A DNA stretch of 64,000 bases from positions 64,001 through 128,000 of the forward strand of contig CAWFQB010000005.1 of the NCBI GenBank assembly GCA_963817895.1, read 5' to 3'. The position numbers and the translations under genes were made by a program. Under the pieces are notes generated by a model. That model was given only the letters and a program-made list of their open reading frames with translations, did not search any database and had not been told where the DNA came from. The first letter of the stretch is position 1. Each line of letters starts with the position of its first letter. This stretch comes from an uncultured Chthonomonadaceae bacterium. Its GTDB lineage: Bacteria; Armatimonadota; Chthonomonadetes; Chthonomonadales; Chthonomonadaceae. Of the stretch, positions 24,121-30,886 are shown one piece after another.

Positions 24121-24480
24121 TCACAGATTAAGGAGAATTCGTAACTTGTCTTCGACCTCAACCATCGTCGCGGCTGAAATATTTCCCATTCGCCGATGAA
24201 GCCGTTCTTTAGCGACAGAACGTATATCTTCGCATTTGATGTAACTAATTACGCTCAACCCACCTTCAGGCGGCTGAACTGCCACATGGGAACGCACTCC
24301 TTTGGAACGGCTGGTGATGGGCAATAAGATCACCAACTCGGCGGGACCAGCATTGAAGACGTTTACGGAAAGGATGAGCGCGGGACGGGTTCCCGCCTGC
24401 TCATGCCCACGAGTGGGATCGAAGTTCAGCATCCAGACTTCCCCTCGCAACGGCGAAAGTGAAGAGGGAACAGGACTCAT
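24121..24480 (-). CDS. MazF/PemK family endoribonuclease toxin
   Basis: RGEVW..FDPTRGHEQAGTRPALILS, LPITS. Confidence 0.92.
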   Translation of the reverse strand: MSPVPSSLSPLRGEVWMLNFDPTRGHEQAGTRPALILSVNVFNAGPAELVILLPITSRSKGVRSHVAVQPPEGGLSVISYIKCEDIRSVAKERLHRRMGNISAATMVEVEDKLRILLNL

Positions 24481-24737
24481 ATCGGCTCCAATCCATCCGC
24501 CAGAGTCTGTTCCCAGAGTTTGCGCTCCTCCATCTCCTCCGCCCACTCCTCCGGCTGCGCCCGCAATGCGGCAAAGTCGGCATTGAGGGCTTCAAGGAAA
24601 GAATGGCGACGATAGGCTTCAACGGCGCGATCAAGAATAGTCTGCATGGGCAGGCCGTTCTCTTTAGAAAGCGCGGTCAATTGTTGATGCGTTTGCTTTG
24701 TGACGCGGACGTTCACGCTTCCCATTTGTATCGTCAT
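24477..24737 (-). CDS. Cognate antitoxin (RHH-like)
   Basis: AAGGAG RBS, ATGA overlap with the toxin, acidic C-terminus WEQTLADGLE. Confidence 0.85.
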   Translation of the reverse strand: MTIQMGSVNVRVTKQTHQQLTALSKENGLPMQTILDRAVEAYRRHSFLEALNADFAALRAQPEEWAEEMEERKLWEQTLADGLEPI

Positions 24738-24843
24738 CGGTATACTCCTTTTTGTTAGTAGCGCTGTTAGTATACTAAATGGCGGCTGATATTGCAAAGC
24801 GCAAAGCAGAATACCAACGCCAAAACTTTGAACACTCTGCGCT

Positions 24844-26083
24844 TCATCGCAATATTCCTTGAAGATTTGGAAGCATGGGAAGACAGCCGGATTTACCACG
24901 CGGGTTGCTCGGCGTTGCCAATGAGTTTGCGGCTGGTTTTGCCGTCAAGGGATGTGAGCCGGATGCCCCGGTTATCGTCCTCATTCGCGTAGCCGATGTG
25001 CGAATAGGCAATCCATTTACCGTCAGGAGTAAAACAGGGATCGGTTCCATTGATCGCTTATTTCGCGCGTTGCGCCCGCGCTTATATAGCCGTCCTCGTT
25101 CTTGATATCGAGAACATTGATGACAGCATAGCCGGAACCTGTAGGCGGTGCAGCGCATACGCCAGATGCTTCTCATCCGGCGACCATGCAAGTCCTGTCA
25201 CCCCCACGTTCTGGCGGCTGCCGTGATAATTGGGATCGTCGTAGTCGGCAGTGGATTTCAGGCGCGTCACGTCCCACTCCCAGGCATGCCAATCTTCCAG
25301 ATTAGCGGAGAGGTTTCGACGCTCGCCCCGTTGCGCAAGCCAGATGTCGCCGTTTCGCGCAAAGGCCAGATATTTGCCCGAACGGGAAAACGCGGGTTGT
25401 TCCTGATGCGAAAAACCGAAGTGGGTTCCCTGCTCGGTCACATCCAACAGCGCAACCGGCGCGCGATTCACTCCCGCCTGCGCGGAAACGGCAAACAGGC
25501 TGTCGGCATCTATGGTTCTACCGTCTTGAACATCGCTGCGCGGCCCAATGGCTGAGTCCGCGCGTTTCAGCGTCAGCGTTTCATCGTGGCTGAACAGCAC
25601 GGTGTCGGTAAGCGGGTCCCATGTCAGCCCCTCAATGCCATAGCCCGCATAGCCGTCATGATCGGGTTCCGGCTTCCATTGCGTGGTGAGCGAACGTTCG
25701 CCGGTTCCATCCGTCTTAATTGTCCAGATATTGTTATCACGGGCGAAGGCGAGTTGTTTGTGATCCCATGACCAGCGGGGCGAATTCGCGTTGTATATCA
25801 GCAGACGGGGATTTGCGCCATCACGGTCTGCTGTCCACACGTCATTGCCGCGCACAAACGCCAGTTTACAGGCGCGTAATGGCAAGGGGGCAAGCGCGGG
25901 ATGCGGCATTTGCGTCGGTGTCGGGAGGTCTTTCGAACAGGCAGTACAAGGCGCAGCGGCAGCGGGCGCAGGGGCCGGAACCACAGGAGGCGGGACATGA
26001 CGACGATGCCCCTGCGCCCACACCAGCGCCCACGCGCCGGTTTCGACCCAAAGCAAGAGCAACAAATGCGAACGGGACAGCAT
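24844..26083 (-). CDS. Secreted TolB/PD40 beta-propeller protein, frameshift near 25140
   Basis: PRWSWDHKQLAF, PAFSRSGKYLAF, LAWSPDEKHLAY; GAGGAGG RBS. Confidence 0.75.
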
Positions 26084-26340
26084 ACGGCCTCCTCTGCGCG
26101 ATAACAACAATAGTTCGATACCGACACATCTGCAAACGATGAAATTAGAAAGACACGGGGAATGAGAGTAGTATAACAGAAACAAAGAAGAAGAACAAGA
26201 GCAAATCAGGGTGAATTTTGGTTACTTTCCGGTTTTACGCGCCCTTTAGCACAACACGCGCTGTTTTGCGATACAATAGAGGGAAGATACGAGATACAAG
26301 CCGAACACCTAACACCAAATGCCGATGTGGATACATTACT

Positions 26341-28385
<2,045 letters not shown>

Positions 28386-28387
28386 GT

Positions 28388-29431
28388 ATGGTTCTCATCT
28401 CGTGCGACCCGGAATTTGAAGCGCAGGCTTTGCAGGAGTTGCGGGAACTATGGCCCGCCATGCCGTCCCCGGAATGGGTAGGGGATGGCGTGGCGCGGTG
28501 CGTACCCGGAGTTGAATTCGGGGCGTTTGCCGCGCTTGTGACGAAACATGCGCCCATTTTCATCCGGCATATCGCGCCCGTGCAGCGCGAAGTGGAATTG
28601 AGCGGCGGAACGGCTGATCTGGAATTGTTCGCAAACGCCGCGTTGAGCCTTGCGTCCCTGCTGAACCCGAACGAAACCTTTGCCGTTCAGACGCGCTTTC
28701 TGCACGAAGAAGCGCGTCCGTATCGCAAGTTCACCCTGAACGAAACGCTTTCCACGCGGCTGCAAGCCGAAACAGGCGCGGCAATGGAGTGCAAGACGCC
28801 CGCGCAGGTGGTTTCCGTCGCCTGTACGCAGACGCGGGGCTATGTCGGCATTTCGCGTACTGCGCAGAACCGCAGCGCGTGGCCGGGTGGGGAACACCGT
28901 TTCAAGCGCGAGGAGGGGCAAATCAGCCGCGCCGAGTTCAAACTGCTGGAAGCCTTAGACGTATTCGGCCTGACGCTTCCTGTCGGCGGCAAGGCGCTGG
29001 ACATGGGCGCGGCTCCCGGCGGCTGGACGCGCGTATTGCGGCAGCAGGGCTTGCGCGTTGTGGCGGTTGACCCTGCCGACATGGACGTTCGCTTTCGGCG
29101 CGACCCGAACGTAACCCATGTTGCCAAAACAATCGAGGCGTTTTTGCCCACGCTGAAAACGCGCTTTGATGTTGTGGTCAATGATATGCGGATGGATGCC
29201 GACGCCTCGGTAGAAATGATGCTGAAAGCCAGCCGCAGCCTTGTGCCGGACGGCCTCGCGATTATGACGCTGAAATTGACAAAGGCAGTGGAAACGCGGC
29301 GCAGCGTTCTGGACGAAGTTCGGCAGGCATTGGAACGGTTACGGCGCGAGTACGATGTTGTCGGGGCGCGGCAACTGTACCACAATCGCAGCGAAGTAAC
29401 GGCAGCTTTGCGACGCAAAAGTGAGGGCTGA
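28388..29431 (+). CDS. FtsJ/RlmM-like RNA 2'-O-methyltransferase
   Basis: ISRAEFKLLEA, ALDMGAAPGGWT, VNDM, TLK, EVT. Confidence 0.85.
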   Translation: MVLISCDPEFEAQALQELRELWPAMPSPEWVGDGVARCVPGVEFGAFAALVTKHAPIFIRHIAPVQREVELSGGTADLELFANAALSLASLLNPNETFAVQTRFLHEEARPYRKFTLNETLSTRLQAETGAAMECKTPAQVVSVACTQTRGYVGISRTAQNRSAWPGGEHRFKREEGQISRAEFKLLEALDVFGLTLPVGGKALDMGAAPGGWTRVLRQQGLRVVAVDPADMDVRFRRDPNVTHVAKTIEAFLPTLKTRFDVVVNDMRMDADASVEMMLKASRSLVPDGLAIMTLKLTKAVETRRSVLDEVRQALERLRREYDVVGARQLYHNRSEVTAALRRKSEG

Positions 29432-29482: not shown

Positions 29483-29516
29483 GGAACAACTGCCGCCACG
29501 GCTCCGTCTCTATAAT
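29483..29516 (+). promoter_or_regulatory. Putative promoter (ECF-like GGAAC-N17-CGTC, followed by TATAAT)
   Basis: GGAAC 29483-87, CGTC 29505-08, TATAAT 29511-16. Confidence 0.5.
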
Positions 29517-29519
29517 CGT

Positions 29520-30068
29520 AATCCACACAGTTGGATACCTACAAAGAAATAGAGTTGAACAACTGAATACCGCGAATAACCAAATACCGGCAAACGAGAT
29601 AGCCAACTGAATAGCGCGTCAAAACTAAATACTGTCACAAAACAAATAGCGACCCTAAAATGAATATCGTTTCCCGCATCGGCAATGTTTGTTGATGTGT
29701 GGTTCAGGCCTTGAGCGTCTGTGCAATGTCTTGTGGACATTCTGCGCAGGCGTTCTTTTACTATATTTTGCTCTAACTTCATAGCGTTGGACAACTACAT
29801 AGTGGTCGAAACAACTTAATAGCGCGAAAAACCTCATAACGGCTCAACCTGACAACTGAATACACAATTGAATAGTCAACTGAATACGCGGCAATCGGAT
29901 TTCCCGACCAGACAACGACATAACGGTACAATCGAATACAGCGTACTGCAGCTCAAAATTGAATAGCGTCCACAATCGAATAGCGTTCCAATCAAACAGA
30001 GTTAAAGTTGTGAAATATACAAATTATTGTAGCGTCCTTTGTGCCTGAAGCGCAAAGGACGCTATTTT
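29520..30068 (+). ncRNA. Candidate ~550-nt multi-motif non-coding RNA
   Basis: About 20 same-strand copies of a CAACTGAATAG-like motif, central G:U-containing hairpins, upstream promoter-like sequence, downstream terminator, no credible ORF. Confidence 0.65.
30030..30068 (+). terminator. Intrinsic terminator
   Basis: TAGCGTCCTTTGTGC-CTGAA-GCGCAAAGGACGCTA then TTTT. Confidence 0.8.
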
Positions 30069-30220
30069 CATGCCTGCTAAATAAAACTTCGTGGGGACAT
30101 AACATGTGTCCCCACGTTTCTTATTTGAATGATGGTATATATGAAAATACCTGTAAAAATACCCGCCGCCCACGTTTATATATGTGGCGGCGGGAGATGG
30201 TTTGACTGGAAACGAGTTGC

Positions 30221-30886
30221 TTACGCGGCGTTGCCGGCGTTAGCGGCGCGGCGGCCGGGAGTGGGATGCGCGGCGATGTATTTGGCAATCGCATCCTTCT
30301 GCGGGGCGGTGAGCAGGGCTTCCACCTGCATTTTGAAATCAGCGTTCACTTCACGGTTTTTCGCCTGACGATCCGCCTGCGCCACGCCTTTCAGCTTGGC
30401 GCTTTCCGTTTCGGTGATGGCGCTGATTTTGTCCATCTGGTCTTTGGTCAGCTTCACATCCGGCAGCGCGCCGACGGGAATGGTCTGGCTGGCGTTGAGC
30501 ATGCTGATCATGGGCATCGCCTTTTCAACGGCGTTGGCCTGATCGGTGGTCAGGACGGCCTTGACATCCGCAACCGCTTTGGTGTTCACGTCGCGGCGGG
30601 CGGTGGCGTCGGCAGCGGCAGCCGCGTCGGTTTTGGCTTTGTCCTGCAAACCGGTTATTTTGGTCTTCTGCTCGTCTTTAAGCGGGCTGACCATATCCAG
30701 AACGGCGACTGGAAGCGTCGCCAGCGTAAGGCGGGCGCCGCCTCCGCGACGTCCCTGACGGGCGGGCGCGGCGCCGGCTGCGGGCGCTTGTCCGGCGGGT
30801 GCCGGGGGCGCGTCCTGCGCAAAGACAGGAATCGTGACAGCGAAAAGGGCGGCGGCAACCATCGTGTTGCGAATGAGATTGTACAT
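30221..30886 (-). CDS. Secreted Spy/CpxP-like LTxxQ protein
   Basis: Signal peptide; LKDEQK, LTTDQ, LTKDQ, LTAPQK. Confidence 0.7.
   Translation of the reverse strand: MYNLIRNTMVAAALFAVTIPVFAQDAPPAPAGQAPAAGAAPARQGRRGGGARLTLATLPVAVLDMVSPLKDEQKTKITGLQDKAKTDAAAAADATARRDVNTKAVADVKAVLTTDQANAVEKAMPMISMLNASQTIPVGALPDVKLTKDQMDKISAITETESAKLKGVAQADRQAKNREVNADFKMQVEALLTAPQKDAIAKYIAAHPTPGRRAANAGNAA

Follow-up and report, generated by a model that had tools for sequence, protein, structure and literature searches.

In a 64,000-nucleotide (nt) window of the 7.48-Mb genome of an uncultured member of the Chthonomonadaceae, an intergenic stretch carries a dense, one-stranded array of short repeats and is predicted to be transcribed as an RNA of about 550 nt. 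The window is the whole stretch of DNA analysed, and coordinates are positions within it unless a contig is named. The RNA belongs to a conserved, apparently undescribed family of the Armatimonadota. To judge from its sequence, the repeat is the half-site that lies just 3′ of boxA in rRNA (rrn) operons, without the 5′ boxA core that is read by NusB-NusE, and the central hairpins are predicted to be a conserved, covarying, attenuator-like switch that the first, sequence-only reading of this DNA overlooked. We favour, with slightly more confidence than doubt, the interpretation that this is a stress-induced RNA that titrates the elongation factor NusA and feeds back on a NusA-sensing attenuator.

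The sequence-only reading had described fourteen plus-strand copies of (C/A)AA(C/T)NNNATA(G/C) together with a number of looser ones. Strict matching gives 12 copies, those claimed at 29577 and 29774 beginning with T, against a mean of 0.18 and a maximum of 3 in 2000 dinucleotide shuffles; the core AAYNNNATA occurs 16 times (mean 0.79, maximum 6, 2000 shuffles) and the loose form AANNNNATA 19 times within 29515-30030 (mean 1.66, maximum 8, 2000 shuffles). The clustering therefore stands far above the shuffles, and most of the looser copies fit as well, with those at 29528, 29892 and 29989 falling outside even AANNNNATA. The minus strand of the array region has no copy, CAACTGAATA is present four times as claimed (shuffle mean 0.001), and the array is the densest cluster of the motif in the genome. 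Spacing within the blocks is irregular, as had been stated, albeit over a range of 12-36 nt and not 12-27 nt. The 19 copies share the consensus ACAAYYRMAUA(G/C)NG and are mostly single-stranded in the predicted folding, motif bases being mostly unpaired (P 0.72 vs 0.38 outside).

Conservation, covariation, the conserved promoter and terminator and, weakly, metatranscriptome contigs support the reading as a non-coding RNA on the plus strand that binds protein at many sites. The longest stop-free stretch on the plus strand is at most 54 codons, and an antisense open reading frame (ORF) of 94 codons is interrupted by a stop in a congener; a protein-coding reading was rejected on these grounds. 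The hairpins at 29676-29698 (−9.1 kcal/mol on the plus strand vs −2.3 on the minus) and 29713-29755 (−25.7 vs −12.5) both fold far better on the plus strand, bearing out an earlier claim, and folding of the whole RNA gives z = −2.38. The promoter GGAAC-N17-CGTC is where it had been placed, at 29483-29508. The strong terminator claimed for the end of the array is right as regards the stability of the hairpin (30029-30064, 15 bp, −25.4 kcal/mol), which has a counterpart at the same position in orthologues, but less so as a terminator, since it has only a 4-U tail and is not among the three sites given by a simple terminator scan. The suggestion that the RNA fits no known family holds in Rfam, where the only match at gathering score in the window is one tRNA; sub-threshold miRNA and snoRNA matches (E up to 5, five loci tested) do not fall on the RNA.

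Homologous loci occur in relatives, where the first reading had proposed to look. BLAST found homologues in four of 40 relatives, a three-copy pattern matched 17 of 42 Chthonomonadaceae genomes (some falsely), and a stricter three-copy pattern matched 31 of 401 genomes of the phylum against one control match, in the Chthonomonadaceae and seven other families. These clusters usually have a stress-type promoter on one side and a terminator on the other. The long form consists of two blocks around a structured module and the short form of 4-9 copies plus a terminator; in the source genome a short form is found at C3:508372-508472, 3′ of a GlsB-type gene. Genomes carry several array paralogues at unrelated positions, each with a promoter and a terminator. 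A covariance model of the module has matches in 18 of 42 Chthonomonadaceae genomes and four of 24 genomes of a sister family. Ten family orthologues were not used in training; the promoter of extracytoplasmic function (ECF) type precedes all nine that have enough upstream DNA, the same ABC-F gene adjoins eight, and only five have at least four downstream motif copies.

Contigs of relatives in RNA libraries from four studies, mostly below 95% identity, map to 29547-29997, within the predicted bounds of the RNA. One contig of 429 nt reaches across the two blocks, with 10 and 18 nt loose at its ends, two bridge hairpin P2 (Table 1), and in these four studies none lies on the upstream gene. Because the runs were selected with this stretch and the contigs carry no strand, ends or level, we treat them as a hint only. 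Four of the seven listed RNA runs were examined, and as word shares were small in all of them we make no claim about habitat.

A scan of a genome collection yielded 41 three-copy clusters in many phyla, against nine with a reversed-pattern control; several of the cross-phylum clusters are plain tandem repeats. Because five clusters adjoin nusA starts, rRNA operons were examined. The motif lies directly 3′ of boxA before a 23S gene of the source genome and also at a second 23S leader, and the repeat matches the 3′-terminal bases of boxA together with the linker that precedes 16S and 23S genes in many phyla. A scoring matrix was built only from 159 repeats, excluding false clusters (AT-rich or coding; L019, L020, L021, L034) and L013, with 11,096 12-mers as the null. 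With boxA patterns that were partly tuned after inspection, and with 57 loci examined of which the pattern-less ones are uncounted, the 12-mer following boxA exceeds the 99th percentile of the null at 10 of the 11 spacer sites, which come from Armatimonadota (10) and Chloroflexia (one), and at only three of eight leader sites. All 36 Mycobacteriaceae post-boxA sites exceed the 95th percentile and 21 exceed the 99th. Among the matches listed, boxA+AACTGAATA, a pattern that contains the motif by design, has a 16S or 23S gene next to it at 69 of 122 loci in many phyla; the exact 20-nt spacer site of the source genome has no match in the genome-contig collection. No complete boxA (NusB-NusE) is present in the RNA, which is therefore not a nut-like site, and a boxA-like YTT lies upstream of only eight of the 159 repeats.

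The case for the central switch comes from an alignment of homologues. Hairpin P1 shows two-sided changes at nine of 10 pairs in 26 homologues and keeps its G-U pair in 24 of them; P2 shows such changes at nine of 18 pairs in eight homologues, and the two together at 13 of 26 pairs in eight sequences, compared to 5-8 in slid controls. The U tract of P2 and a trailing ACAUA are conserved. A short hairpin, AGRC-N7-GYCU, forms first in folds of truncated transcripts and overlaps the 5′ strand of P2. It is weak, at about −3 to −5 kcal/mol, and its pairs are kept in the 26 homologues: pair 60-70 of alignment A2 is AU in 11, GC in nine, GU in five and unpaired in one, and one pair covaries strongly, although the outermost is broken in 13 of 26. 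The module thus has the mutually exclusive antiterminator and terminator hairpins of an attenuator, both conserved, albeit with a weak antiterminator. We also note that P2 keeps a CAUGG-like loop in many of the 26 homologues, and that a plain terminator would not need such a loop.

The leaders of GlsB-type genes and of an ECF sigma factor gene contain the same module. In the source genome the leader of the sigma gene (C3:482105-482761, minus strand) begins with two motifs, followed by a diverged module. Nineteen of 20 close orthologues have enough upstream DNA, and of their leaders 16 have at least one motif and 10 at least two, with none antisense; the background in the source genome is a motif at 462 of 5796 genes (8%), and only six genes there have two copies within 40 nt, the sigma gene being one of the six. 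Most of the orthologue leaders start at GGAAC-N17-CGTC, as expected for autoregulation, with a sigma70-like promoter instead in the source genus. A strict antiterminator pattern gave no match in these leaders, being too strict, and they were judged by eye. A close orthologue of the sigma gene is present in 17 of 18 module-positive family genomes and the module in 17 of 20 orthologue-bearing genomes; the genomes are kin, so this co-occurrence is not a statistical test. As a separate observation, P1 plus the short hairpin recurs as a second, highly conserved copy 60-100 nt upstream of the start codon of the sigma gene, and this copy often has an upstream motif to itself.

The promoter of the RNA is probably a stress promoter, as the proteins encoded downstream of the same consensus look like general-stress proteins. 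An intergenic GGAAC-N17-CGTC precedes a GlsB/YeaQ-type gene in the source genome, and the same consensus precedes genes for Dps-, KGG-repeat- and YciF-like proteins (labels by eye). By script, this promoter lies upstream of 11 of 23 family loci and of none on the reverse strand, the present locus being missed through a clustering artefact. The short RNA of another family has a different promoter before it, GTTTAAG...GGGCAT, in seven of 20 other-family loci (reverse strand, none), and this promoter resembles the sigB/sigF consensus.

NusA is suggested as the bound protein by several lines of evidence. M. tuberculosis NusA uses its two KH domains to bind extended oligonucleotides derived from boxC, in which AUA is critical (PMC2724277), and the invariant end of the repeat is AUA. 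The linker between boxA and boxC contacts NusA and SuhB (PMC8632103), and a leader terminator may depend on NusA (PMC12691694). KH1-KH2 of NusA is reported to bind this part of rrn RNA, and NusA strengthens some intrinsic terminators. The KH region of the source-genome NusA matches the RNA-bound structure 2ASB (E 7e-45) better than it matches E. coli NusA (E 4e-37), and NusB and Rho genes are also present. The RNA of the Beuth 2005 structure is presumably the stretch that we see at locus L203. As in RNA sponges, a stand-alone RNA carries many predicted single-stranded copies of one motif, and the same motif stands at putative natural targets, the rrn spacer sites and the ECF sigma leader. The part of the literature searched, outside subscription journals and bioRxiv supplements, which could list RNA motifs, held neither an RNA sponge for NusA nor a description of this RNA family, and the available portions of PMC6614797 and PMC3553938 contain nothing on either.

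In the mechanism that we propose, the ECF sigma factor would make the RNA under stress, and the RNA would bind many NusA molecules in trans so that free NusA falls. NusA-dependent terminators would then leak, among them the module in the sigma-gene leader and its counterpart within the RNA, and the leak would supply both more sigma factor and more binding sites, a positive feedback; rRNA antitermination would meanwhile lose NusA. If the sites promote read-through instead, the loop would be negative, and the direction of the feedback is the part of the mechanism of which we are least sure. A larger claim, which we advance tentatively and rate as somewhat short of probable, is that this would be the first RNA antagonist of NusA, consisting of tandem NusA half-sites derived from rrn and made by a stress sigma factor, stripping NusA from RNA polymerase and rRNA operons, and opening a NusA-sensing attenuator both in the sigma-gene leader and within its own sequence as a feedback switch into a general stress state.

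A number of observations weigh against titration of NusA. Five of the 10 newly found module orthologues have 0-1 downstream copies, so the array is not universal, and the relatives are non-independent samples. NusA is abundant in cells, and titration would thus need a very abundant RNA, yet the library contigs cannot show its level or strand. Chthonomonadaceae 16S-leader boxA sites mostly lack the motif (one of six above the 99th percentile), and the tuning and design of the boxA patterns described above count here too. Leaders of nusA are rarely marked, with two of 30 in an unbiased Phycisphaerae set compared to a background of eight of 344 windows, and four of 30 in the Chthonomonadaceae with a motif within about 120 nt; a general autoregulation of nusA through the motif was set aside as weak on these counts. 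The scan of source-genome 5′ untranslated regions proposed in the sequence-only reading showed slight enrichment genome-wide. A start-codon profile at −60 to −20 (sense 18, 21 vs antisense 9, 8) has no composition control and so was not used. The source-genome NusA has an acidic tail of about 70 residues, which may affect RNA binding, and the genome encodes an inositol monophosphatase-family protein that is a SuhB candidate. In E. coli, the boxA-boxC linker is assigned to SuhB and boxC to NusA (PMC6614801).

This last point leads to the strongest competitor, which we judge unlikely, namely that the RNA is a sponge for another protein that reads the rrn linker or A-rich strands, such as SuhB, S4, NusE, a KhpA/B-type KH protein, S1, a cold-shock protein or Hfq. 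SuhB has been placed on the linker (PMC6614801), genes for Hfq, CsrA and an inositol monophosphatase-family protein are present in the source genome, and the clusters before a phage capsid gene, other phage genes, an eS1 gene and nusA starts could be translation enhancers. The RNA, however, has five GGA, one ANGGA and no AANAANAA in 551 nt, its AUA end fits the reported NusA determinant (PMC2724277), and the position of sites just upstream of terminators fits a known role of NusA (PMC12691694). Membership of the CsrB/RsmZ group, whose RNAs carry numerous GGA/ANGGA motifs that stand for the most part in hairpin loops, was rejected on the GGA and ANGGA counts and the lack of an Rfam match, with csrA present in the genome, and membership of the CrcZ group, where AANAANAA motifs bind Hfq/Crc, on the absence of AANAANAA, with hfq present.

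Next in order, and rather improbable as well, is the possibility that the sites bind NusA in cis only, during transcription, setting the attenuator or holding RNA polymerase with no global titration. This would agree with the use of the module, carrying one or two sites, in the leaders of ECF sigma and GlsB-type genes, with the frequent occurrence across phyla of 3-5 copies between a stop codon and a terminator hairpin, and with the half of the new orthologues that lack a big array. It does not readily account for 11 sites 3′ of the attenuator with no sense gene behind them, the downstream ORF being convergent, or for the stand-alone RNAs with promoter, array of 4-9 sites and terminator that recur in several families.

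The first reading had named an endoribonuclease among possible partners, and the evidence points to NusA instead. A role as decoy or antitoxin RNA against a sequence-specific endoribonuclease, similar to type III toxin-antitoxin systems or MazF, is highly improbable: coding sequences show a mild depletion of the motif on their sense strands (440 vs 495 ± 17) and a MazF/PemK-like ORF (label by eye) lies about 5 kb upstream, but there is no toxin gene 3′ of the terminator, the repeats are short and irregular, and the motif is kept at rRNA antitermination sites and in the sigma leader, where cutting would be costly. Type III antitoxins are made of long pseudoknot repeat units, and membership of that class was rejected because the gene after the array is convergent and matches no family. 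Least probable of all is a protein-binding array in DNA (an origin, operator or titration locus), for which the placement of all copies on one strand and the failure to find dnaA in the 81%-complete assembly, so that oriC is not locatable, are outweighed by strand-specific G-U pairs and covariation, by the absence of DnaA boxes within about 300 nt and of a GC-skew switch, which also led us to reject a replication origin or iterons, and by paralogues at unrelated positions each having a promoter and a terminator.

Compared with known systems, CsrB/CsrC/RsmZ and CrcZ are likewise stand-alone RNAs with many short single-stranded sites, several paralogues, an end terminator and a regulated promoter (PMC8058203), but the present RNA has a motif other than GGA or AANAANAA as well as an internal attenuator-like switch, and it is proposed to target a factor of transcription elongation instead of a regulator of translation. 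The rrn boxA/linker/boxC site, bound by NusB-NusE, NusA, SuhB and S4 (PMC8632103, PMC6614801, PMC2724277), shares the boxA end and linker, whereas the present RNA lacks the 5′ boxA core, has 19 repeats and has no rRNA or other gene behind it. NusA-dependent leader terminators and their antagonist LoaP (PMC12691694) also constitute a checkpoint relieved by antagonising NusA; LoaP, however, is a protein that acts in cis on one operon, and the antagonist proposed here would be an RNA acting in trans with a sigma gene as target. Sequestration of the transcription machinery has a counterpart in other RNAs. 6S RNA and Ms1 are abundant stress or stationary-phase RNAs that bind RNA polymerase through one structure; the present RNA offers many linear sites and does not match 6S in Rfam.

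The sponge RNAs known so far act on regulators of translation (CsrA, Hfq, RapZ). If our proposal is true, a NusA-titrating RNA would control termination and rRNA synthesis together without a dedicated regulator, and would explain how attenuation could govern an ECF sigma factor in a phylum that has hardly been studied. The arrays under other stress sigma factors in other Armatimonadota families, and the short arrays in other phyla and phages, would then reflect a broad, overlooked sequence-specific NusA code. The family also supplies over 150 candidate NusA sites in a natural alignment, which makes sequence-specific NusA binding beyond rrn outside E. coli testable.

Table 1. Features of the array locus and its neighbours, in window coordinates
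Feature	Position	Strand	Basis or remark
FtsJ/RlmM-like rRNA methyltransferase, upstream neighbour	28388..29431	+	
ECF-type promoter GGAAC-N17-CGTC	29483..29508	+	sequence; GGAAC from 29483, CGTC from 29505
Predicted ~550-nt non-coding RNA	29518..30068	+	5′ end inferred from promoter
5′ repeat block, 8 loose copies of post-boxA (putative NusA KH1-KH2) site	29543..29666	+	
Hairpin P1, conserved GGC/GUC top and G-U pair	29670..29702	+	covariation
Short alternative hairpin (candidate antiterminator), overlaps P2 5′ strand	29705..29721	+	truncated folds, alignment
Hairpin P2 and interrupted U tract, internal terminator-like element	29713..29765	+	covariation
3′ repeat block, 11 loose copies, predicted only on P2 read-through	29775..29982	+	
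Final terminator hairpin, short U tail	30029..30068	+	folding; same-position hairpin in orthologues
Second hairpin, terminator-like on both strands, probably for convergent gene	30090..30116	.	terminator scan
Convergent downstream ORF	30221..30886	-	no Pfam or NCBIfam match

The FtsJ/RlmM-like gene adjoins the RNA only within this genus, and the ABC-F gene is the wider marker of synteny. In the window the ABC-F gene is split into three ORFs in different frames (26218-28385, plus strand), probably through assembly frameshifts. The MazF/PemK-like ORF lies at 24121-24899 on the minus strand and has a small upstream partner.

Some occurrences of the motif elsewhere are recorded as side observations. 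Three copies lie about 10 nt before the nusA start in five Phycisphaerae loci, and four copies precede an eS1 (S3ae)-like gene at a Micrarchaeota locus. Three copies also stand directly before phage or prophage genes, one for an HK97 major capsid protein (L066) and others capsid- or tail-like by eye; viral matches of three-copy clusters number five in all. Copies are found at the 5′ end of leaders that resemble thiamine pyrophosphate (G000:C2:87885, minus strand) and c-di-AMP (L237) riboswitches, recognised by eye. In records of Streptococcus, Veillonella and Peptoniphilus (12 loci), boxA and two copies of the motif recur in near-identical form, with no rRNA in the fetched flanks, possibly on a shared mobile element. 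One of the two 16S genes of the source genome (G000:C4:153267-154970) has no 23S gene within 900 nt, and with a separate 23S gene on C14 the rRNA genes are unlinked.

The source genome also contains 46 copies of a dispersed element of about 190 nt (e.g. C4:136100-136520), with a strong Shine-Dalgarno sequence, an ORF of 8-9 codons mostly ending R-x-P-stop (e.g. MPVHTRSP), two hairpins and a U tract. Two congeners have at least 40 and 11 matches and three other family genomes have none, and the two copies tested have no Rfam match. The core is nearly invariant in 43 of the 46 copies, 11 of the 46 have one post-boxA motif upstream, and the element is possibly an arrest-peptide RNA or a mobile repeat.
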